Shown in pieces: positions 2,497 through 46,369 of a DNA stretch of 49,926 nucleotides (positions are counted from its first letter, which is position 1; each line of letters begins with the position of its first letter). The notes beneath the pieces were generated by a model. That model was not told the DNA's origin and ran no database searches. It saw only the letters and a program-made list of their open reading frames with translations. Source of the DNA: a virus; the UHGV virus genome UHGV-1353897, one strand, 5' to 3'. The translations under genes and the position numbers were made by a program.

Positions 2497-3542
2497 TGGA
2501 AATCAAAGCAATAAACAACAATGACATGCTGAAACAGGCTGTCTTGGCTATCCGTGAATTCGGGATCGAATCTGATCCTGGTAATGCTGAAATCAATACT
2601 GATAGCACCCGCTTCCTTGATGGCGTGACCATAACCGTCGCCGACATCCGTGACCGCTGGCTATCCGTTGAAGGTCGTAACTCATCGGCTATCGCTGCCA
2701 TCGGCGAGACCTTCTGGGTTCTGTCCGGGCGCGATGACGTTCGCTTCCTGTCCCGCGTGTTGCCCCGCGCCGCCAACTTTTCCGACAACGGCCACACATG
2801 GCGAGCCGCTTATGGTCCGCGTCTGTACGCCCATGGCCAGCTGGATAGCGTCATCAACCGCCTGCGCAAGAATCCAAACACTCGCCAGGCGTACCTCACC
2901 ATCTATGATCCGGCTCTGGATTCGGATGCTGGTCTGGCGAAGTTCAGCGAGAGCGGCGAAGCGAAGACTAAGGACATGGTGTGTAACCTGGCTCTGTTGT
3001 TCGCCATCGTTGAAGGTCGTCTGAACCTGACGGTTATCAATCGCTCACAGGATGTTCTGTGGGGTATGAGTTCAATCAACTTCATTGAGTTCTCTATTCT
3101 TCAGGAAGTGATTGCTCGGGTGTTGGATGTTGATGTCGGTCAGTACAAGCTATTCTCTAACAATCTTCATTACTACAACAATGAAGTCAGCCAGAAGCAG
3201 CTGGGCAAGATCACGAAGGACACCAAAGTAGAAGCTGGGTTCATCAACTCCATGATCCACTTCACGAACGTGACCAACCAGAACCATATCCGCGATCTGT
3301 TCACTGGCGTGCTTGTTCATTGTGACTTCGGTAGTCCTTGGGAAACTGTTGTTGCCTTCCTGAAGGAGTATGATGCGGATCGCGGTCTGATTGTGCAGAT
3401 GGCATACTGCCTGCACTGCAAATTGAATAACAAGCTCATTAACCTGGACCTGATTCAGGATCATGGATTGAACACCGCGCTCACCCATTCTCCGGTTGAC
3501 CGCAAGATCGTTGATCCTAAGTTCCTGGAAGGTGTAGTATGA
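2496..3542 (+). CDS. thymidylate synthase / pyrimidine hydroxymethylase superfamily enzyme (divergent)
   Basis: Core aligns to TS/dCMP-hydroxymethylase catalytic segment: Cys in MVCN, exactly 20 residues before RSQD (TS: PCH...RSxD), then GxxxxNF and LHYYNNE (TS GDxHxYxNH-like); 348 aa, longer than T4 td/gp42. Confidence 0.65.
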   Translation: MEIKAINNNDMLKQAVLAIREFGIESDPGNAEINTDSTRFLDGVTITVADIRDRWLSVEGRNSSAIAAIGETFWVLSGRDDVRFLSRVLPRAANFSDNGHTWRAAYGPRLYAHGQLDSVINRLRKNPNTRQAYLTIYDPALDSDAGLAKFSESGEAKTKDMVCNLALLFAIVEGRLNLTVINRSQDVLWGMSSINFIEFSILQEVIARVLDVDVGQYKLFSNNLHYYNNEVSQKQLGKITKDTKVEAGFINSMIHFTNVTNQNHIRDLFTGVLVHCDFGSPWETVVAFLKEYDADRGLIVQMAYCLHCKLNNKLINLDLIQDHGLNTALTHSPVDRKIVDPKFLEGVV

Positions 3543-4108
3543 TGTACCCAAATCTTGAATTCTTTACGGGGCGCAAGCGTTCCGGCAAGGACTTCTGTTT
3601 GGAGTCCCTCATCAGCTATCACCAACTACAGGGTGATATGGACATCCAGCGCCTTTCGTTCTCAGATGAACTGCGCCGGGTTGCCAACTTCATCTATCCA
3701 TGGCTGCCAGCGGAGGTAGAGGATGCCGTGAAGGACGTTCCTTACGTGCACCCTGATAACCCCAAGGGCTTAACTCCACGGCAGATCTGGCTTCATCTAG
3801 GCAGCGATACGGGCTTGCGTTACGTACAGCCTGATCTGTTCCTGGCATTCTTCAAGCGCTTCCAGCTTCCTTTGGTAGAGCAGAACCCCCACGTCCATTA
3901 TATCGTGAGCGATCTGCGTACCCCTCAGGAATATGAATGGGCGCTGAGTACGAAATGTCCTATCACCCGTATTTCAAAGGCCGACCGTGCTGGTATCATA
4001 GAGGACGATATAGAGGCTTTCATTGACCAAATGAAAGTGGACTACGAATTCCTCAATCCATTTGATGGTTGGGCACCGTTCGTTAAATTCTACGGAGAAC
4101 GTAAATGA
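3539..4108 (+). CDS. 1: deoxynucleoside monophosphate kinase (T4 gp1-like)
   Basis: N-terminal P-loop GRKRSGKD matches T4 gp1 GVKRSGKD; YIVSDLRTPQE resembles gp1 YYIVPDTRQDHE; ATGA overlap with upstream gene. Confidence 0.7.
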   Translation: MMYPNLEFFTGRKRSGKDFCLESLISYHQLQGDMDIQRLSFSDELRRVANFIYPWLPAEVEDAVKDVPYVHPDNPKGLTPRQIWLHLGSDTGLRYVQPDLFLAFFKRFQLPLVEQNPHVHYIVSDLRTPQEYEWALSTKCPITRISKADRAGIIEDDIEAFIDQMKVDYEFLNPFDGWAPFVKFYGERK

Positions 4109-6271: not shown

Positions 6272-6578
6272 CAGTGGAGGGGGAGGAGACTCCCCCAATA
6301 ACTACACAATCATCGACCCTGGTGCTGATCAGCTGGCGATCATCAAGATCACTTCTGGCAAATTCCGTGGTGTTCAATTCCGGTTCGGCAAGGTGGCCAT
6401 CAACGAAGTGGACGGCGAACCCCGCCTGTCTTTCGTGACTGATATATTGAAGAAACCATTGCGTCTGATGTTTGTGAATTTGAAAGAAAATGACTTGTTC
6501 ACTGAGGTGTCAGGGGATATCCTTGTAGACCTCATGCAGCGTAATGCTCAGGAATATAATAAATTTTTGGTGGGGTAG
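6249..6578 (+). CDS. hypothetical protein
   Basis: ORF track starts at GTG 6198; first ATG at 6249 overlaps uvsX end; Gly-rich N-terminus; sits between uvsX and the helicase gene. Confidence 0.4.
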   Translation: MLSTQANNSGGGGDSPNNYTIIDPGADQLAIIKITSGKFRGVQFRFGKVAINEVDGEPRLSFVTDILKKPLRLMFVNLKENDLFTEVSGDILVDLMQRNAQEYNKFLVG

Positions 6579-6584
6579 TGGCCA

Positions 6585-8009
6585 ATGTTACTCGAATCTG
6601 TCGTGCTTTCACAGTTGATTTACAATGAAGATTACCAAAGAAAGATCCTGCCGTACCTGAAAGCCGATTATTTTGACAACGAAGGCGAAAAGGTCATCTT
6701 TGGTCTGATTGACAGTTATACCTCAGAGTACAATGCCCGCCCGTCTGTCGAAGCACTATCTATCATTCTTGAACGGACAAAGCTGAACGAATATGTGTTT
6801 GACCAGGCGGTATCTGCCCTGGAGAACATCAACGACAACACCTTCAATGAAGAGTGGCTGGCGAAGGAAACCGAGGCTTGGGCGCGGCAAAAGGCCGTAC
6901 ACAACGCAATCAAGACCGCCGTTAACATCTACGGTGACGAGAAGCGCAAGGACGAGATGAACAACATCCCGACCATGTTGCAGGAAGCCCTGGCGATCCG
7001 GTTTGATTCATACCTCGGTCACATCTATTGGGAGATGGCGGCAGAGCAGTATGACCACATGAACTCCAACGAGGCCAAGATCCCGTTCGCAGTTGAGATA
7101 TTCAATAAGGCGACACGTGGTGGCGTTGGTAAGAAGACACTGAACATCGTAACAGGTGCGATCAACGCAGGTAAGACCACAACGCTGATTGACCTGACCG
7201 CAGGGTACTCGGAGCAGGGGCTGAACGTCTTTGTCTTCACCCTTGAAGTGGCCGAGAACGTCTGGCGACACCGTCTTGATGCCCGTATCATGCGACGCGA
7301 CTTTGAGTCTTTAGAGAAACTCACAAGGCACGAGTATATTGCAACGATAGAGAAGCTCCGCAGTCGCCAAGATGGTGCGCCCAAGGGTGATATCGTCATC
7401 AAGGAATATCCTTCTGGTACTGGACACACAGGTTTATTCCGCCGCGATATCCTTGAGTACATCCAGGCAACTGGTCGTGCTCCTGATGTTATCGTTATTG
7501 ACTATCTTGGCGAAGCTGCTTCCTCACGCCTGCCTGCCCACCTGATGCAGAACACGAACGTCTATTACACGTCTGTGGCTCGTGAGTTTCGTGCGCTGGG
7601 ATTTGAGTTTGATGTCCCTGTATGGACTGGTATGCAGTTCAATCGTGAGAATCAGAATAGCACTGATGGTGGAATCAGTGATTTGGCAGATGCTATCGGT
7701 ATTCCGAAGGTGGCCGACTTCATCATGGCATTCTATGCTCCTGACGAACTGGCGGCGGTCAAGAAAGCCCGAGCCTCAATACTCAAGAACCGTTATGCCA
7801 ACAAGCAGAAGCTGAAATCATTCCTGTTTGGTATGGACCAAGACAAACAGATCCTGTTTGACCTGGACTGGAACGAAGTTAAGAAGGACCTGACTGAGGC
7901 TGAGGCCAAATATGTCGAAAACGTACACATCAAACATGACCTCAACAAGTCCGGGGCTGCTGCCAGCGATGAGCAGAAAGCCCAAACAGTCAATAATTGG
8001 AAATTCTAG
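6585..8009 (+). CDS. 41: replicative DnaB-family DNA helicase (T4 gp41-like)
   Basis: 474 aa (T4 gp41 is about 475 aa); Walker A GAINAGKTT; RecA-like core; adjacent to uvsX as in T4. Confidence 0.85.
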   Translation: MLLESVVLSQLIYNEDYQRKILPYLKADYFDNEGEKVIFGLIDSYTSEYNARPSVEALSIILERTKLNEYVFDQAVSALENINDNTFNEEWLAKETEAWARQKAVHNAIKTAVNIYGDEKRKDEMNNIPTMLQEALAIRFDSYLGHIYWEMAAEQYDHMNSNEAKIPFAVEIFNKATRGGVGKKTLNIVTGAINAGKTTTLIDLTAGYSEQGLNVFVFTLEVAENVWRHRLDARIMRRDFESLEKLTRHEYIATIEKLRSRQDGAPKGDIVIKEYPSGTGHTGLFRRDILEYIQATGRAPDVIVIDYLGEAASSRLPAHLMQNTNVYYTSVAREFRALGFEFDVPVWTGMQFNRENQNSTDGGISDLADAIGIPKVADFIMAFYAPDELAAVKKARASILKNRYANKQKLKSFLFGMDQDKQILFDLDWNEVKKDLTEAEAKYVENVHIKHDLNKSGAAASDEQKAQTVNNWKF

Positions 8010-10996: not shown

Positions 10997-11605
10997 ATGT
11001 CACTGAAAAACTTACTGAAACGCATCTTCACCACTGTTGAAGCCAACGTCACCACAAGTCTGGATAAACTGACCGACACCGAAAAGCGCCTGAACCTGGC
11101 TGCTCGCAAGCTGTCTGACGAAATCCGTCGCCTGGAGGAAGCCCGTGTCACCAACGTCCGCAACGGCGTCAAGCTGAAGAAGACCGCAGAACAGAACCTG
11201 AGTGAAGCCGCCAAGCGCGAAGAAGTTCTGAAGGATGCCATCGCTCGTGGTGTCACACCAACCCGCGCCGACGCCCTGATTATTCTGCATCGCCGCCGTA
11301 TCGGTGAAGCCCTGTTGTCTCAGGTGAAGGACATCGAAGCAAGCAGCGACAAACTGAACGGTGCGATCATCCAGCTGGGTGACAAACTGGACGAAGTCAA
11401 GTCCAATCTCGAGCTGGTTCGTGTTCAGAAAGAGACGAACGACCTGGGTCTGGTGCTCCCTGAAGATATCGATTATGCCGCTGGTATGACCACCATCGAT
11501 ATCGATGCCATCCTGCGCGAAACCGAAATCGCTGATTCGAGCTACTCCGCCAACAGCCCGTCGTCTATCGAAGCCGACAACTACCTCGCCAGCCTGAGCA
11601 AATAA
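10997..11605 (+). CDS. coiled-coil protein (PspA/IM30-like?)
   Basis: 202 aa, strongly alpha-helical heptad-like composition reminiscent of PspA/IM30; weak assignment. Confidence 0.35.
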   Translation: MSLKNLLKRIFTTVEANVTTSLDKLTDTEKRLNLAARKLSDEIRRLEEARVTNVRNGVKLKKTAEQNLSEAAKREEVLKDAIARGVTPTRADALIILHRRRIGEALLSQVKDIEASSDKLNGAIIQLGDKLDEVKSNLELVRVQKETNDLGLVLPEDIDYAAGMTTIDIDAILRETEIADSSYSANSPSSIEADNYLASLSK

Positions 11606-11619
11606 CATCAGAGGGGCTT

Positions 11620-12180
11620 ATGCCCCTCTATCACTTCGGGGATCTTATGAACATTATTGATTCTTTCAACATACTCACTGGTGCTACTGCTTTCGTTCTT
11701 TTGTGTATTGGCAGTGCCTGGCTGAGAGGTCGACTGAAGAAACGGGAAGTCTTGAAGCGAGACCGTGTTGACATCCACAAAATAATGCTGGATAGAACTT
11801 GCAAACATGGCCCCAGCGGTGACTTCCGTTTGTATTATTTGTCGGATGAAGTCACCCCTTCGGAATTCTTCAATTATGCGATGACTGGGTTGCATTGGCC
11901 GGAGATAAATGACGTTGTTCAGAAAAACGATTACGTGTACGTGAATATGGCTTCTCTGAACAAGCACGGGGAACGCGACGATCTGCGGATGTGGTTCTTT
12001 GGAGGAGAGGAACAAGAAGAGTTCGTAAAAGAACTTGCTCTCTTGCTTAACACGTACGAAAAGGCTGGTTGCCCACCACTCGAGGTGGAAGAATCAGTAG
12101 AATCTATCGTGGCTCGCGCTCGTGGTGAAACCGTGGATCTACTGAACAAATACGGCTTTGTCTGGGCGGAGGGTTCATGA
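11620..12180 (+). CDS. hypothetical protein (N-terminal TM helix)
   Basis: 186-aa ORF with hydrophobic segment near N-terminus. Confidence 0.5.
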   Translation: MPLYHFGDLMNIIDSFNILTGATAFVLLCIGSAWLRGRLKKREVLKRDRVDIHKIMLDRTCKHGPSGDFRLYYLSDEVTPSEFFNYAMTGLHWPEINDVVQKNDYVYVNMASLNKHGERDDLRMWFFGGEEQEEFVKELALLLNTYEKAGCPPLEVEESVESIVARARGETVDLLNKYGFVWAEGS

Positions 12181-12242
12181 TGGATACAGAAACATTTGCG
12201 GTCATTATCAGCCAAGCAAGATCCCACACCCGCCAATAATCT

Positions 12243-16673: not shown

Positions 16674-16736
16674 GCGGGTGATCTCACCGAGGCGTCAATC
16701 TTGCCTGCGATGTTCTCCAGTTCCCGATTGCCTTCG

Positions 16737-17033
16737 TTACCCCACATCGACAGTATCCTTCATCCATACGCTGAAGTCGCGGGTGAAGATCGGAGACATG
16801 CGAGCGAATCCCATGACGATCTCATTGACTGTCGGGATACGGATTTCAAATGGCTTGGACTCGGCCTTGGTGCCCTGTTTGGTGGCAGATTCCAGCTTGG
16901 CCAGATTCTTGTTCATCCGGTCAAGCTGTTTGTTGGTTTCATTCTGAGCGCGGAGTTGTTTGCGCTGCATCATCTCCGCCTTGATCTTGTCTAGAACTTT
17001 GACAACATCATTGTTCGTTGCTTCCTGTGCCAT
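16737..17033 (-). CDS. hypothetical coiled-coil protein
   Basis: 98 aa, Lys/Gln/Glu-rich helical; separated from downstream tape-measure-like ORF by 63 nt with stops in all frames. Confidence 0.4.
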   Translation of the reverse strand: MAQEATNNDVVKVLDKIKAEMMQRKQLRAQNETNKQLDRMNKNLAKLESATKQGTKAESKPFEIRIPTVNEIVMGFARMSPIFTRDFSVWMKDTVDVG

Positions 17034-22100: not shown

Positions 22101-22132
22101 GAAGGGGAGTATATACTCCCCTTCTTCAATAA
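22101..22132 (-). promoter_or_regulatory. promoter cassette (ATTGAAG box + palindromic -10 hairpin)
   Basis: Perfect 24-nt palindrome GAAGGGGAGTAT/ATACTCCCCTTC (22101-22124) with TATATA at centre; minus-strand TTATTGAAG immediately upstream; 22 nt before CDS start 22079. Confidence 0.4.
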
Positions 22133-22147
22133 CCGCTGAATCTTTAT

Positions 22148-22477
22148 TCAGAGATAAGATTTACCGAGTTCGGTCAGGCGATAGAACGTCACCTCAGTGT
22201 TCGGCCAGTTCACGTAAGAACCGTCATGAACCATTGAGCCAGCTGGTTCGATCAACCCCTTGGCGAGCAGGGAAGCCCCTGTGCGGGGGTTGCCTTTGAC
22301 GGAGGTGAAACCACCAGCGTTCGGACATACCCGGAACGTCCAGACGGTGTTGCCCTTGTCATTGGTCCAGGATTTGGGATGAAAGTACCATTCACCATAA
22401 CAGCAATGACCTTTCTCAAAGTTCAACATTCCTAAAAGGACGCAGAGTTGATGTCCTGTGATGCGTGGCTTTTTCAT
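22148..22477 (-). CDS. hypothetical protein
   Basis: ORF track 22148..22528; internal ATG at 22477 gives ATGA overlap with upstream gene. Confidence 0.45.
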   Translation of the reverse strand: MKKPRITGHQLCVLLGMLNFEKGHCCYGEWYFHPKSWTNDKGNTVWTFRVCPNAGGFTSVKGNPRTGASLLAKGLIEPAGSMVHDGSYVNWPNTEVTFYRLTELGKSYL

Positions 22478-22791
22478 GACAATACTCCTTTCAGAGCTAA
22501 AACGGAAAGCACACCAATAATCAACCATGTCGGGATAATCGGCTTGCAGTTCGTGTGGGTTTCTCCACCTTCGATGTTCGGACTTCCTTGTATAAGAACG
22601 TGTTCACAGGAAGCTCTGAATGTCATTACACAGCCCATCAACACAATCGGCCTGATATAATAACCCGTTTTAGTTTGCTTCACGATACATGGAGAGGAGA
22701 AGCGCAGATATGGATCCCCTTTCCGGTAGCCTGTGATTGTGACCTTCTGCACTTCAGAAGGCACTTTTTGGCCAGGAAAATAAATTTTCAT
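22474..22791 (-). CDS. hypothetical protein (C-terminal TM helix)
   Basis: 105-aa ORF, hydrophobic C-terminus. Confidence 0.45.
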
Positions 22792-23366
22792 ATTTCAATC
22801 CCCAGATTGGTGTATAACAACTCAGACAGGGTTACAGGGCGCTTGAATTGTTCCCAACTACAGTTCAGGTATTCGCGCTCTTCGCGAATATTTTCGTGAA
22901 GATGACCATGGATATTATACGCCCAGCGGTCTAATTGATAAGGAACGTGAGTGGTCAGCACACGACCAACCGGAGTATCACGCTCATACATCGCACCAAA
23001 GGAGCTAATCCATCCCTCTTGATACAGCTGCATCAACATCTTGAAGCTGTCATGGTTGCCTTGCGCCACCCTGATGATAAAGTTCGGTCGCCAGTCATCG
23101 GGAACCGGGCGGCGCTTGAACTCATCAATATTCCGCTTGGCACCCTCGCGCATCAGGCGAATGAACCCCTCAGCCCCGATGAAGCAGATGTCGCCTGCAA
23201 GTTCAAGGACGTCTCGAGACTTCATTCCCTGGAAGATCGTGTCGATGACTGCAGCATCATGCGCCTCTTGGGTATCGAACCCACGGGGCTTGAAGATCTT
23301 CTTGTGTCCGAGGTGGGTGTCGCCCAGATACTTCACAATTCCTGCCATTATGGTCTCCTCAACCAT
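22788..23366 (-). CDS. calcineurin-like metallophosphoesterase
   Basis: Motifs GDTHLG (DxH), AGDICF (GD), GNHD, GHLH in canonical order; 192 aa, lambda-phosphatase-sized. Confidence 0.7.
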
Positions 23367-23776
23367 TCTAAAATCGGTACGTTCACAAACCCTTTATGCC
23401 AGCGATGGGGTTTATGGCCTCTGTTGTGTTCGAGCAAACACGTGTCCGGTGGGACACTGAAGTGGATGCCGTCGATGTCGTAGTAATGCCCATCAATCAG
23501 AGTATACACATGACCTTCAATCTGACTGTAATGGATCTCTGCTTGAGGGTACACGTGCTTCAACAACAGAGCGACCTGGTAACACTTCCCGTTCTTCCCC
23601 ACGTACTCGACATCCACCTGTTGTGGAAACACATCTTTGACAAGGTTTATCAATCTCGTGATGTCATTTACAACAACCGAACGTTTCATATCGCCTCTCC
23701 CGAGGATTCGTTGGTGAACCAATGATACTCTATCCCGGATATAGAAAAGCCCCTCACGGGGCTTGATCGTCTTCAT
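23348..23776 (-). CDS. hypothetical protein
   Basis: 142-aa ORF, His-rich C-terminal region. Confidence 0.5.
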
Positions 23777-24056
23777 CAGGGAATATACGCCATCGACCTA
23801 TTCCATACCACTCACCGATAGAGTTCCATGTCCTTTCCCCAGGCCAGCCACCGACCGTGTAGTAATGCGCCACCAGCCGCCAGTAAGGAAGAGAGGCCAT
23901 GTTCATGCCGCCGTCGGCCTTTAGGCAGGCCAAGTACCAATTCGTGAGACTGAACGCCTGAAATAACGGATGAAGGAACATGAAGTACAGGTAGCCCAAT
24001 ATGGCTGCGAACACCCCAGCTGTTACGATAGCGCCAATAACTGTGAAGAATATCAT
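23754..24056 (-). CDS. small membrane protein
   Basis: 100 aa, two hydrophobic helices, Trp-rich. Confidence 0.45.
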   Translation of the reverse strand: MIFFTVIGAIVTAGVFAAILGYLYFMFLHPLFQAFSLTNWYLACLKADGGMNMASLPYWRLVAHYYTVGGWPGERTWNSIGEWYGIGRWRIFPDEDDQAP

Positions 24057-24475
24057 TCTTTCACTTCCAGACCCATCAGATCTTCCATGGTCTTCTGAAT
24101 ACGCAGCCAGTCAAGCGCAGCGTCATAACGAGGGTCATGATAGACCATACCTTCCAGTTCCCACGCCTTGATACCAGCATACCGATCCTGCTGTCCAACA
24201 CCCTTCAGCCAACTCACGATGTCGAAGGTGTGGTGGTAATCCCAAGGCTCGTTGGAGTCCTGCTTACACGTCACCTCAATGATGTGCTGAGCCTTGCGCA
24301 GATCAAACAGGTTACGGTCACACCAGTCAACCGAGCGCGGGTCTACCCCAAGACGATGACAACCCTTGCGGATTTCATCGGCCAATTGGAAGATAGAGAT
24401 GTCATCTTCCTTGGGATACAGACTGACGGCGCGAGCCGCATCACACGGGTTACGTTTACCCGCCCCAACCACCAT
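24053..24475 (-). CDS. hypothetical protein
   Basis: 140-aa ORF; overlaps ORF 24343..24684 by about 130 nt in another frame. Confidence 0.45.
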   Translation of the reverse strand: MVVGAGKRNPCDAARAVSLYPKEDDISIFQLADEIRKGCHRLGVDPRSVDWCDRNLFDLRKAQHIIEVTCKQDSNEPWDYHHTFDIVSWLKGVGQQDRYAGIKAWELEGMVYHDPRYDAALDWLRIQKTMEDLMGLEVKE

Positions 24476-24684
24476 TCTACCGTCCCCTGGTCCTTCACGC
24501 GACCAAGTTCGAGCTGCTCTTTGACATTCAGCTTAATGAACGTCGTGCGCTCCTCAACCAGCTGCTGAAGAGTATAACGCTTGGTCAGGTCGGCGATGGT
24601 GTGTGCCCAAGACAGCATGACTGCATCATCCCAGCGCCCCAAGGTTTCACTGTCGGCCACAGCCAAAAAATTTGATTTATACAT
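24343..24684 (-). CDS. hypothetical protein (start region likely real; 3' extent uncertain)
   Basis: 113-aa ORF covering otherwise uncovered 24476-24676; long out-of-frame overlap with 24053..24475 suggests frameshift or a shorter gene. Confidence 0.3.
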   Translation of the reverse strand: MYKSNFLAVADSETLGRWDDAVMLSWAHTIADLTKRYTLQQLVEERTTFIKLNVKEQLELGRVKDQGTVEWWLGRVNVTRVMRLAPSVCIPRKMTSLSSNWPMKSARVVIVLG

Positions 24685-24928
24685 GTTTATTCTCCCAACA
24701 CTTTATTTTGGCTTTTACTGTATAATAATTTTCATCAATGAACTTTTTGTTGACGCGCTTAATTTCTATCTCTGGGCAAAGTAACCCTATAGTTTCCCTC
24801 AAAATCTGGCTCACCCTGGCCTGTGAAATACAATAAATTTCTGATACTTCTTTCGAACTAGATCCAGACATGACAAGTTTTAGGATATTGACCTTTTTAT
24901 AAAATTCTTGATCAAACGCGCATATCAT
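24677..24928 (-). CDS. small HTH protein (sigma-70 region-4/LuxR-like helix-turn-helix)
   Basis: 83 aa with ISQARVSQILRET helix-turn-helix-like segment; gene lies in a markedly AT-rich island. Confidence 0.45.
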   Translation of the reverse strand: MICAFDQEFYKKVNILKLVMSGSSSKEVSEIYCISQARVSQILRETIGLLCPEIEIKRVNKKFIDENYYTVKAKIKCWENKHV

Positions 24929-25544
24929 TATTCACCCCCTCCACCCGGATAATTTCTTCTTCAGAATCGACGACGTTGATATCATCGTCCAGCGCGTTCA
25001 GATTTTCCATGTCTTCCGCAAACTTGTCTACTTCCATGATGTAGAACACGGGGACAACCCGGCAGCGAGTGTCTTCATACAGGGTTTCAGCCAGCGCTTC
25101 CACCTGGCGGACAACGTCATACAGATTCAGACCGCCGATGCCACAGCCGATAGCAGGCAGGCCGACATAGACAGTTTCGTCTTTAGTTGCTTCCACAATT
25201 TCATGCACCTGCTCAAACAGGGTCTGAACAGAACTGATGACAGACGGCATGCGAGCATTCGGACCTGGATAAAACTGAGTGTAGAGGTTCGCACCCCAGA
25301 CACCAGTGCTGTGGTCAAATGCATAGGACATGCCACCCAGGCGTTGCTCTGGACCACGAGGGTCGTTAGCATCGACTTCACGCAGGGCTGGGAAGTTGTT
25401 ACCGATGTGCAGGGCAATACCAGCGCCCATGGTAGACCAACAGTTGGCACCGTGGGCAAAGATGTCGATCAGATTGAAGCTACAGGCGGCTTTCAGTAAA
25501 TCGCCGCCATTGATTACATAGGTTGTCATGCGTACTGTCTCCAT
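24912..25544 (-). CDS. macro-domain protein (ADP-ribose binding/hydrolase-like)
   Basis: Two macro-domain signatures: HGANCWSTMGAGIALHI (cf. NAAN..GGGV..AIHRAAG) and VGLPAIGCGIGGL (cf. FPAISTGIYG). Confidence 0.6.
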   Translation of the reverse strand: METVRMTTYVINGGDLLKAACSFNLIDIFAHGANCWSTMGAGIALHIGNNFPALREVDANDPRGPEQRLGGMSYAFDHSTGVWGANLYTQFYPGPNARMPSVISSVQTLFEQVHEIVEATKDETVYVGLPAIGCGIGGLNLYDVVRQVEALAETLYEDTRCRVVPVFYIMEVDKFAEDMENLNALDDDINVVDSEEEIIRVEGVNNDMRV

Positions 25545-28209: not shown

Positions 28210-29376
28210 TTATTCATCCTCAGTTTCAAACAGGCAAACATCGCTAAACCAGGTTTTACGGTAATCGGCAGCCTCATCACCGAAGCCATTCTTCAGTGAC
28301 TGTTGGTAGCCATCGTCCAGCGTGACCGTCGTAGTATACGCATCCAGGTTGTTTAGAATACGTTTGAAGTCTTCAGTGCTGTTACCACCCAGACCTTTCA
28401 GATATTTCTTCTTCGTGATCTTCTTGGCATCAGGCGTCTTCAGGAACTCCTCATACTCTGCGTTGTTCATGAACTCATGCATCACCTTACCACACCACAC
28501 ACGCATGTAAGGGGTGCGCAGGAGCTTCAGCCTGCCCTGACGGACATACTCCGGCCAGTAGGTGCAATACAGGGTGATCAACAACCCACGGATGTGGATG
28601 CCGTCATCGTCCGCATCGGTAGCCACAACAGTCTGTGGGTAACGGGTGATATCAAGGGGCTGGCCTGGCACTGCGCCGCCATGGATCGTACACAGGTTCT
28701 TGAACTCTTCATTGTTCATCACCTTTGAGCGCGGGGCGTTCAGGCAGTTGATGAACTTACCACGAAGCGGGAACAACCCGATCTTCTTGGTGTCGCGGGC
28801 GTTCAGGATAGGATTGGAGGCACTATCACCCTCTGTCAGCAACAGGGAGCATCCGCTGCGGTCACCACGGGCGGTCGCCGGGTAATACTTCTCAATCTCA
28901 CGATAATCCCGTTTGCTGATGTCCTTCTTGGCCTTTTCAAACTCAGCATCATCCTGCTCATTGCGCAGGGAAGCCAGTTCTTTGCTCAGACCAGCCGTAA
29001 CGAACTCAAGCGCCTTGCGGATCAGTTTATCGCTGGGCTTGTACGACGTACCGAACTGGCTGACAGGAGTGGTCATGCGCTCCTTGGTCTGGCTGTCAAA
29101 GCGCGGGTTGTTGATGTCGGCGGCGATGAACAAGGACATGTGGTTCTTGATCATTGCTGGCTTCAGTTCGGTCTTGAACTTCTTCACCAGCTGGGGACGA
29201 ATCGCTGCCACGATCTGGTCAGCAACATAATCAACGTGAGGACCACCGATGTGGGTGGCAATAGAGTTCACGTATGATGCGTGCATGAACGTACCGGATG
29301 AAGGGGCTACAGCAACAGACCAATCCCCCGGTTTGCAACAGCCGAACCAGCATGGAATAATCAACGAAGTGGCCAA
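28210..29376 (-). CDS. 39: DNA topoisomerase II large subunit, transducer + Toprim portion
   Basis: GyrB-like transducer (GGPHVDYV, FDSQTKERM) and Toprim (LLLTEGDSASN); frame is open well upstream of the listed start and overlaps the ATPase ORF. Confidence 0.8.
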   Translation of the reverse strand: MATSLIIPCWFGCCKPGDWSVAVAPSSGTFMHASYVNSIATHIGGPHVDYVADQIVAAIRPQLVKKFKTELKPAMIKNHMSLFIAADINNPRFDSQTKERMTTPVSQFGTSYKPSDKLIRKALEFVTAGLSKELASLRNEQDDAEFEKAKKDISKRDYREIEKYYPATARGDRSGCSLLLTEGDSASNPILNARDTKKIGLFPLRGKFINCLNAPRSKVMNNEEFKNLCTIHGGAVPGQPLDITRYPQTVVATDADDDGIHIRGLLITLYCTYWPEYVRQGRLKLLRTPYMRVWCGKVMHEFMNNAEYEEFLKTPDAKKITKKKYLKGLGGNSTEDFKRILNNLDAYTTTVTLDDGYQQSLKNGFGDEAADYRKTWFSDVCLFETEDE

Positions 29377-30116
29377 AGCGTCAATCCGGATTTGCTCCCG
29401 TTGAGAACAATCTTCAGGCGCGGGTTACACGCAGCCACTTCAAACGCGCGGCGATAGATCATCAGCAGGTTGTTCTGGTCAAGTCCTTTGACGCCCAGAC
29501 GAGCATAGTCAGGGATCCAGGCGATGGATGTGCCAGGACTGTTCACGTTGCTGATGACTGGGTTAGATTTCTTGCTCATGTTGTCTTCAAACGTCTGAGT
29601 ATAAGACTTCTTGCCGTCATTAGTCGTGACGCGGAACCATTTGGAGAACACGTTGACGAGGGACGCCCCTTCGCCATTCTGACCACCGGACTTCTGGTTG
29701 TTGTACTCTTCGTCTTCGTCGTTGAAGTTCGATCCCGCATATAGAGAGCCGAACAACATTTCAGGAAGCCACTCGTTGGTGACGCCATGCTTGACCACAG
29801 GGATACCTCCGTTGTCAGCAACGATGATTTGACCGTTCATCGGGGAAACTGTGACGGTGATTTCCGTCAGGGATTTACCCTCAGGGGTCTTGCTGTGGTC
29901 AACACAGTTGGTGATGATTTCATCAAACTGTTTGATCAGCGCGGGGGAGTACTCAAAGTTGTCACGGAAGATGACTTTGTCCTTAGTTGGGTCATACACC
30001 CACACCGTCCCCACAGACGAACGAATACTGCCCAGATGACGCTCTGGGCGGAGTAGGATATGCTCAACGTGAGTGAGCTTCTTGTACTTGCGTTCAATAT
30101 CAATTTTGTTGGACAT
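29361..30116 (-). CDS. 39: DNA topoisomerase II large subunit, N-terminal GHKL ATPase portion
   Basis: YKKLTHVEHILLRPERHLGS N-terminus typical of T4 gp39/GyrB; ITNCVDH N-box; VADNGGIPV G1-box; ends in stop after 251 aa while homology continues in the -1 frame. Confidence 0.8.
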   Translation of the reverse strand: MSNKIDIERKYKKLTHVEHILLRPERHLGSIRSSVGTVWVYDPTKDKVIFRDNFEYSPALIKQFDEIITNCVDHSKTPEGKSLTEITVTVSPMNGQIIVADNGGIPVVKHGVTNEWLPEMLFGSLYAGSNFNDEDEEYNNQKSGGQNGEGASLVNVFSKWFRVTTNDGKKSYTQTFEDNMSKKSNPVISNVNSPGTSIAWIPDYARLGVKGLDQNNLLMIYRRAFEVAACNPRLKIVLNGSKSGLTLWPLR

Positions 30117-44777: not shown

Positions 44778-46369
44778 CCCTTCTTCATCAGGTCAAGGAG
44801 AGAGCGCGACGCTGCCTTCGTTGCTTCTGGCTGGGCGCTCGCCTTGGTTTTAGTTTTGGATGCCTTCTGTGGCTTCTCAGGGACTCTGTGTGCCAAAGGG
44901 TTGCTACCTCTTATCTTGCGCAGCATGGGATACTGCTCGCAATATTTATGGAATTCATCTTTTGAAAGATTAAGCCCAACAAAGTCAATAACAAAGTCAC
45001 CGATAACCGCCAACGGGGCGTCAAAATATTTCAGGATGTTCCAGCCGACGGCCTTCACACCGTTTCCATTAGCAGCCTTGGCAATGAAGAGTTCATGATT
45101 GGAATCCGGTTCCAGCTCATACCCAATAGCAGAATATTCGCCCATGATCTTGACATGATCCTTGGTGTATTGATCGTTTCGTCCCCAGCCAGTGTCCTTC
45201 GCCGCCTTACCAGAACGACCGATGATACGCTTGTCGTAATCTTCCCGTGCCTGATAGATGAATGAGATGAATGCCATGTTGTTGAACCCCAAGTCCTGGT
45301 GTACGAACTTAGGACGCCACCGATGGCTCTGCATCATAGGTTCCCCTTCCAATATGATGGTAGAATCCTTGTATTTCCCTTTGATGTATTTCACCAATGA
45401 ATTGGCCATCTCAGAAGTCTTGAGAGTGGAGTGGATGAAGTCCATGGAAGTCCAAGAAGCCAGATCTGATTTGTTGGACACTGTATACTTGCCGATGAAC
45501 ACCAGATTGATTTCCTTGAACCAAAACCCAACCTGGATCATCTTCTTGTCGAATTCGTATTCTATGAGTTCTGGCTCATATTTGGTTCTCAACCACTCAA
45601 GGAATTGAACGACACGAGTCCCCTTTCCCGTTCCACTTGTCCCGCGAATAACGACAATACCCGGCGTCACGCTAGAATTTATCATAGTCATAAAACGTTT
45701 GTCCTCTTTGGGAATCCAACCATCTTTAAACATGGCGATCATATTACGAAAGACGCTCTCATCGCCCTTTAGATTACGATACTCTGTGTCCAGTAGTTTA
45801 GAATACCACAATCCGATAGATTTGTAACCACATCCTCGTTTTGGCATACAGGTAGGATTCACAGTACCGCCGTTGTTCACCCATCTATCATAGATCCTAC
45901 GGGCGTCCTTCCAAACCCACCAATAACCATTTGAAACCATGAATGGGTAGGGAGAATTACCCCTGTTCTCCTTTATTGATTTTATTACACGTTCCCGGTA
46001 TTCTGGATCATCCCAAGGATTTATACCAGATTTGTATTTCTTGCCAGTCCTAGCCAACGCCGCCTTAAATTGGTTTGGTATGATAGAATTGTCTCCTCCC
46101 AATTTCAGGTTCAGGCATAATGGGTCCAACAGTAACTCTTCCGTAACAATAATAGACTCCAGGTCGGATGCCTCCAACCTGGTTTCAAACTTTTCTATTA
46201 TCGTCTTTAAGAATTCAGAAGCGGGGTGAGATTCCAACAACCTTTTGATGATAACACCAGAACCCATATAGGGGTCTTGTTCGGGGGTGCATGAACAAGA
46301 CCGAATCCCGACGTAGAATCTCCCAGTTGGGACATGAGTTATCCTATATGTGTAATGGTAGCGAGCCAT
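44774..46369 (-). CDS. GIY-YIG-like N-terminal domain fused to P-loop NTPase-like domain
   Basis: N-terminus YHYTYRITHVPTGRFYVGIRSC..YMGSG resembles GIY-YIG nuclease motif; central Walker A GTSGTGKGT; 531 aa continuous ORF. Confidence 0.5.
   Translation of the reverse strand: MARYHYTYRITHVPTGRFYVGIRSCSCTPEQDPYMGSGVIIKRLLESHPASEFLKTIIEKFETRLEASDLESIIVTEELLLDPLCLNLKLGGDNSIIPNQFKAALARTGKKYKSGINPWDDPEYRERVIKSIKENRGNSPYPFMVSNGYWWVWKDARRIYDRWVNNGGTVNPTCMPKRGCGYKSIGLWYSKLLDTEYRNLKGDESVFRNMIAMFKDGWIPKEDKRFMTMINSSVTPGIVVIRGTSGTGKGTRVVQFLEWLRTKYEPELIEYEFDKKMIQVGFWFKEINLVFIGKYTVSNKSDLASWTSMDFIHSTLKTSEMANSLVKYIKGKYKDSTIILEGEPMMQSHRWRPKFVHQDLGFNNMAFISFIYQAREDYDKRIIGRSGKAAKDTGWGRNDQYTKDHVKIMGEYSAIGYELEPDSNHELFIAKAANGNGVKAVGWNILKYFDAPLAVIGDFVIDFVGLNLSKDEFHKYCEQYPMLRKIRGSNPLAHRVPEKPQKASKTKTKASAQPEATKAASRSLLDLMKKG

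Follow-up and report, generated by a model that had tools for sequence, protein, structure and literature searches.

The metallophosphoesterase gene considered here lies in the viral genome UHGV-1353897, analysed as a single stretch of 49,926 nucleotides (the window), and its product belongs to the calcineurin-like superfamily, within the clade that holds Aquifex aeolicus aq_1665 (PDB 1xm7), COG4186 and PHROG 547. Judged from its sequence and modelled structure, it appears to be a stand-alone, minimal two-metal phosphoesterase with an intact predicted catalytic site, and we see roughly an even chance that it serves phage DNA metabolism as a metal-dependent phosphodiesterase whose substrate is a nucleic acid or derived from a nucleotide. 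The gene itself is an ordinary one: dozens of near-identical phage genomes already carry an annotated copy, and placing it in the superfamily is a routine matter. To our knowledge, the clade has no member with a known substrate; 1xm7 was deposited as 'unknown function', and no functional study of the clade was found in the literature on aq_1665, 1XM7, COG4186, phrog_547 and the phosphoesterases of Ackermannviridae and T5.

The window is from an Agtrevirus-like Ackermannviridae phage, approximately 96% identical to Escherichia phage AV101, with the region of the gene 95–98% identical to AV101 and other Agtrevirus-like Ackermannviridae; there the ortholog already bears the label "phosphoesterase" or "putative Ser/Thr protein phosphatase". 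The syntenic 50 kb of AV101 contains genes for DNA polymerase, rIIA/rIIB, topoisomerase II, Tk.4, DexA, the phosphoesterase and dCMP deaminase, together with baseplate genes, DNA ligase, primase/helicase, UvsX, dUTPase and a thymidylate-synthase-like gene. On the minus strand of the window the order is a macro-domain/Tk.4-like gene (24912-25544), an 83-aa ORF, dexA, phrog_2531, a YunG-like gene (PF24591) and the phosphoesterase, followed by DUF7618, phrog_4677, phrog_4059, dCMP deaminase and a bPH_2 membrane protein. The longest ORF of the YunG-like gene (23348-23776, minus strand) would encode 142 aa, compared with 342 nt and 113 aa for the AV101 ortholog, and is probably over-extended at its 5' end, with the real start at M30, giving 113 aa. 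In a more distant Ackermannviridae-like contig the place of this gene is taken by a 220-aa protein with no match to PF24591. A terminator-like hairpin with a 10-bp stem and the tail GTTTATTAAG is found between the phrog_4677 and phrog_4059 genes (22101-22124, minus strand), and may end a transcription unit that takes in the phosphoesterase; a promoter scan around the operon returned promoter-like sites no more commonly than in shuffled sequence.

The preliminary description of this DNA had placed a 192-aa protein at 22788-23366, and while that ORF is real, its length is likely to be overstated (Table 1). The true start is probably, indeed almost certainly, M7 (ATG 23348-23346), six codons inside the longest ORF, because this codon overlaps the stop of the YunG-like gene as TAATG, is preceded by GAGGAG, and agrees both with the homologs, all 11 of the 11 aligned opening with MAG, and with the orthologs in AV101 and vB_CECAV_050, which are annotated as 561-nt CDSs. 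The extension MVEETI is carried by none of the same 11 homologs and is probably untranslated. At the other end, the phosphoesterase stop and the DUF7618 start share 4 nt (ATGA), so that the gene reads as translationally coupled on both sides, through TAATG upstream and ATGA downstream. Comparison with AV101 reveals no indels inside the gene, which is intact and, because dN/dS is 0.12–0.20 among orthologs, evolving under purifying selection.

Table 1. Coordinates in the window of the metallophosphoesterase gene, its start signals and motifs, and the adjoining genes; residues are numbered on the 186-aa protein.
Feature	Coordinates	Strand	Remarks
Longest metallophosphoesterase ORF	22788..23366	-	192 aa
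Likeliest metallophosphoesterase CDS	22788..23348	-	186 aa + stop; from homolog starts and 561-nt ortholog CDSs
Six-codon 5' extension MVEETI	23349..23366	-	Within upstream gene; holds Shine-Dalgarno
Putative ribosome-binding site GAGGAG	23355..23360	-	6 nt 5' of ATG 23348; read off sequence
Motif I, GDTHLGH	23304..23324	-	D10 and H12 metal ligands; H15 nearly invariant in family
Motif II, GD (G52, D53)	23190..23195	-	D53 bridging metal ligand
Helical insertion, ~30 residues (58-90), between motifs II and III	23079..23177	-	From alignment gaps, split matches and modelled helices
Motif III, GNHD (97-100)	23049..23060	-	N98 metal ligand; H99 catalytic histidine
Motif IV, H134 (within THVP)	22947..22949	-	From alignment
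Motif V, HGHLH (147-151)	22896..22910	-	H147, H149, H151
YunG-like gene (PF24591), upstream	23348..23689	-	Pfam E 4.7e-43; PHROG 4814 over residues 30-142
DUF7618 gene, downstream	22474..22791	-	Domain match

All five metallophosphoesterase motifs (DxH, GD, GNH[DE], H and GHxH) are found in canonical order. In an alignment of 40 sequences, reaching down to 25% identity, D10, H12, G52, D53, G97, N98, H99, H134, P136, H147, H149 and H151 are invariant, and H15, R22, F24, D100, R141, N145, G148 and Y160 are nearly so; it is this conservation of the motif residues that argues against the pattern having arisen by chance. An AlphaFold2 model (pLDDT 88.7, pTM 0.87) predicts the beta-sandwich metallophosphoesterase fold. 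The initial characterisation of the product as a compact calcineurin-like metallophosphoesterase with every motif present is therefore upheld, by the ordered, invariant motifs and by the confident fold model.

Assignment to the clade rests on a full-length profile match, the closest fold and clade-specific residues. The window protein matches PHROG 547 'phosphoesterase' with an E value of 3e-44, and carries all of the residues that mark the clade beyond the metal ligands (H15, R22, F24, P136, R141, N145 and Y160). Its Pfam scan gave no relevant match, PF00149 and PF12850 included, and 18 of the 40 family members match Metallophos or Metallophos_2; neither PADLOC nor a single-sequence phmmer search of the PDB returned a match for the window protein, and its only NCBIfam match was to PdeM (TIGR04123), at 18.1 bits and below the cut-off of 150. 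An exhaustive profile search gathered 1862 cluster representatives at E ≤ 1e-3, most of 155–200 aa, and the extensions of the longer members hold no Pfam domains, so that fusions give no pointer to the substrate. Searched against the PDB, the family profile matches aq_1665 over its full length (E 3e-22), and GpdQ, SbcD and Mre11 over the N-terminal half only (1e-5 to 1e-6), followed by ApaH (0.018) and by PP2A (0.5), the sole PPP-family chain listed.

Structure comparison, which the preliminary description had proposed, also puts 1xm7 at the top (15.8 in the fold ranking), ahead of MJ0936 (10.0), LpxH (9.8), the Pseudomonas putida nuclease MPE (9.0), YfcE, Mre11 and SbcD (8.7 each), lambda phosphatase (7.9, with 116 residues aligned), ApaH (7.0), and the Clostridium thermocellum Pnkp phosphatase domain and Rv0805 (6.7 each). 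Foldseek against the PDB agrees with this ranking, and in a search of viral models it returns 'metallophosphatase/phosphoesterase' proteins of phages, including one with the label COG4186. Even the closest relative, aq_1665/COG4186 ('predicted phosphoesterase or phosphohydrolase'), is only about 21% identical to the window protein when 1xm7 is aligned with it, and differs in lacking the helical insertion between motifs II and III. This insertion is present in the Ackermannviridae-like subclade and is missing from most family members in the 40-sequence alignment; many profile-search matches fall into two stretches around it, and the AlphaFold2 model places helices at residues 59-73 and 75-78, with a pLDDT of 82–95 across the block.

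Ackermannviridae genomes keep one gene order, topoisomerase II ... Tk.4, DexA ... phosphoesterase ... dCMP deaminase, down to 50% protein identity. Dickeya phage RC-2014 (Limestonevirus) is without Tk.4, DexA, the YunG-like gene and the phosphoesterase, and retains of the last only its final ~70 nt (3501-3572, matching window 22788-22860), fused upstream of the start of the next gene. Limestonevirus has deleted these genes, a loss that marks a variable accessory block in the Ackermannviridae, in keeping with the earlier suggestion of an accessory cluster; and since only the 3' remnant survives there, the phosphoesterase gene is dispensable. The macro-domain gene, which had been put forward as a neighbour, does belong to the same block, but it is not directly adjacent, lying ~1.5 kb upstream with the YunG-like gene, phrog_2531, dexA and a small ORF in between, and the link holds within the Ackermannviridae alone, replication and nucleotide-metabolism genes being the neighbours elsewhere.

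A number of other differences from AV101 were seen in the window. DexA (24053-24684, minus strand) is split into two overlapping ORFs of 140 aa and 113 aa, both PHROG 255, at a 1-nt homopolymer difference near 24466, where the window has C4 and AV101, in which dexA is one 633-nt gene, has C5; the split reflects a genuine frameshift or else an error of sequencing. The topoisomerase II large subunit (28210-30116, minus strand) is likewise found as two ORFs, of 388 aa and 251 aa, in place of one 636-aa CDS, and a cluster of small indels at the junction (29329-29396) amounts to a net −4 nt relative to AV101; the 447-nt ORF between the two topoisomerase genes of AV101 is missing from the window. 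A compensating deletion and insertion at 16694-16743 leaves the ortholog of an AV101 648-aa protein, encoded between the baseplate genes and the helicase loader, as ORFs of 528 aa and 98 aa. Approximately 1.2 kb of the window (10997-12202), with two plus-strand ORFs of 202 aa and 186 aa, is missing from AV101, and 44899-46367 has no blastn alignment to AV101, where the matching stretch has a SegD-like gene.

Beyond the Ackermannviridae the family is widespread in phages. A tblastn search with one typical member as query found it in 2117 of 50,697 phage records, carriers including T5-like phages, Ackermannviridae, Kayvirus, Listeria and Enterococcus myoviruses, SPbeta-like phages, PBS1, Acinetobacter T4-likes and many Vibrio phages; a scan of bacterial genomes gave 22 family loci only, many of them on short MAG contigs. 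Members are mostly located in replication or nucleotide-metabolism modules, including beside FEN and gp46/47 genes. Examples are found between nrdA and nrdB in a T4-like MAG phage, between gp47 and gp46 in Acinetobacter phage Maestro, after nrdG in Vibrio phage F86 (with helicase, primase and dUTPase near), between a DnaB-like helicase and two genes annotated exonuclease and exonuclease I in Bacillus phage BillyBob, between yorR and nrdI/nrdE in the SPbeta-like phage Goe11, between DNA polymerase and virion genes in Salmonella phage PHA46, close to the polymerase, and, in this window, near dCMP deaminase and DexA. The T5-like phage DaisyDussoix, where the gene sits amid hypothetical and lysis genes, and Kayvirus P108, where its neighbours are hypothetical, are less informative.

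A census of neighbours was made at 80 IMG/VR loci, gathered with a narrower alignment than the 40-sequence one, by calling ORFs and clustering those within 8 kb. The commonest neighbours were ribonucleotide reductase and 5'-3' exonuclease (12 loci each), then DnaB-type helicase and family A polymerase (PolA; 10 each), a 257-aa metallophosphoesterase (8), ATP-dependent DNA ligase (6), endonuclease I (5) and PD-(D/E)XK nuclease (4); dNMP-kinase-like and terminase-like clusters were recognised by eye only, and RNA ligase, polynucleotide kinase and protein kinase did not recur. The 257-aa protein (at 6455-7228 in locus L047, and in seven other loci) is a second metallophosphoesterase, ~600 nt from the family member in three of the loci, and is homologous to Bxb1 gp47 (BLASTP E 7e-9), of the mycobacteriophage excision factor/phosphodiesterase family. 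Its presence near family members in 8 of the 80 loci is the basis for saying that in many phages two or three different small metallophosphoesterases are encoded next to one another.

Considering what such an enzyme might do, D10, H12, D53, N98, H134, H149 and H151 would coordinate a pair of divalent metal ions, which in characterised relatives are Mn2+, Ni2+ or Fe, and this pair would activate a water molecule for attack on the phosphoester, with H99 of the GNHD motif assisting the leaving group. Diester or pyrophosphate chemistry, rather than action as a phosphoprotein phosphatase or monoesterase, is suggested by analogy, since the characterised enzymes nearest in fold comprise diesterases, a pyrophosphatase and nucleases, and the PPP signature is absent. 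That the substrate is of the nucleic-acid or nucleotide-derived class is a less firm proposal, which draws on the recurring replication and nucleotide-metabolism neighbourhood; against it, the association is loose, with the top neighbour family present in no more than 12 of the 80 loci and some members amid hypothetical, lysis or virion-side genes. Metallophosphoesterases are known for their promiscuity, and fold neighbours do not fix the substrate. Oligonucleotides, or blocked DNA or RNA ends from host nucleic-acid breakdown, would be candidate substrates, and fit the place of the gene beside DexA and dCMP deaminase. A role in thymidine exclusion or modified-base synthesis was also considered, as family members occur in PhiW-14, PBS1 and AR9, which like the Ackermannviridae have modified or uracil DNA, but is not favoured: the family is carried too by T5-like, Kayvirus and Listeria phages, whose DNA is ordinary as far as is known.

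Two of the alternatives fare poorly once sequence, fold and neighbourhood are set side by side. That the protein is a Ser/Thr (or Tyr) protein phosphatase of the lambda phosphatase type, reversing host phosphorylation, is the commonest label in GenBank and was an option in the preliminary description, and the lambda enzyme (1g5b) and its PPP family do share the superfamily fold and metal ligands with the window protein. However, GDTHLGH, GDICF and GNHD stand in place of the PPP signature GDxHG, GDxVDRG and GNHE, lambda phosphatase comes only twelfth in the fold ranking, PP2A is the only PPP chain in the profile search, no kinase genes recur nearby at the 80 loci, and T5-like phages have a separate 287-aa PPP-like phosphatase, with GDLIDRG, beside the family member; taken together, these make a protein phosphatase improbable. 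A recombination nuclease of the Mre11/SbcD type, working with a Rad50-like ATPase, is effectively refuted, as the preliminary description had anticipated. The likeness to the Mre11/SbcD nuclease domain is a generic one of fold, in which only the core aligns (~138 residues); the protein has 186 aa and no capping domain, no gp46/gp47 (Rad50/Mre11) gene adjoins it or turns up elsewhere in the 50 kb of AV101 that is syntenic, and phages with gp46/gp47 carry the family gene in addition.

Closer to the favoured phosphodiesterase, of which it is a narrower form, is a DNA nuclease or end-processing enzyme like PdeM or gp48, possibly acting alongside phage Mre11/Rad50, which would either attack the host's DNA or, for replication and recombination, clean up DNA ends. 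We regard this as somewhat unlikely, if the best placed of the alternatives. Mre11/Rad50 genes adjoin the family member in one lineage and exonuclease genes in another, and the P. putida nuclease MPE (PdeM, 6nvo) is among the fold matches, but the PdeM profile score is far below its cut-off, the ligase/Lhr/exonuclease operon of that enzyme is absent here, where the neighbours are YunG-like and DUF7618 genes, and the protein has no capping or DNA-binding domain. MJ0936 (1s3l), E. coli YfcE (1su1) and LpxH are just as close, and none of the three is known as a nuclease; the small phosphodiesterases MJ0936 and YfcE, with natural substrates likewise not known, resemble the window protein in sequence at the superfamily level only, and belong to another subfamily (Metallophos_2, with a GNCD-type motif). 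The mycobacteriophage phosphodiesterase gp48/Bxb1 gp47 has been reported to damage host DNA (PMC12287305), and Bxb1 gp47 and A10ZJ24 gp48, early metallophosphoesterases with reported phosphodiesterase activity (PMC12287305), share with the family a phage origin and a replication-region setting. Kinship with these 255-aa proteins was nevertheless rejected, hhalign giving a probability of 1% with only GNHD in common, and their family is found as a separate gene beside family members.

Less likely again is a phosphodiesterase for counter-defence, which would break down a nucleotide signal of host immunity or stress (cyclic oligonucleotides, 2',3'-cNMPs, Ap4A or alarmones), perhaps together with the macro-domain protein. 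The dispensable accessory block does hold that macro-domain (Tk.4-like) gene, the family is widespread in large virulent phages, and the nucleotide-cleaving metallophosphoesterases ApaH, Rv0805 and Spr1479 are detectable fold relatives; phage phosphodiesterase families of other kinds have been predicted to have the same counter-defence role (PMC7824862). Against this, PADLOC, the family profile and the fold comparison lend it no specific support, and profile and fold comparison give no specific sequence or structure similarity to ApaH or to the class III cyclic-nucleotide phosphodiesterases (Rv0805/CpdA). A broader speculation, to which we give similarly little weight, is that the family is a dedicated phage enzyme for removing one specific nucleotide-derived molecule, whether an immune or stress signal or an end-blocking group, and that in the Ackermannviridae it could pair with the macro-domain protein.

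Were that speculation true, the family would be a new class of phosphodiesterases, widespread and devoted to counter-defence or to the repair of nucleic acids, in a clade present in approximately 4% of deposited phage genomes. For annotation, the GenBank label "Ser/Thr protein phosphatase" is without support from sequence or fold. The family is widespread in large virulent phages, Bacillus phages included, where it is found mostly in DNA-metabolism modules, and a single biochemical study of one member would annotate thousands of genes.
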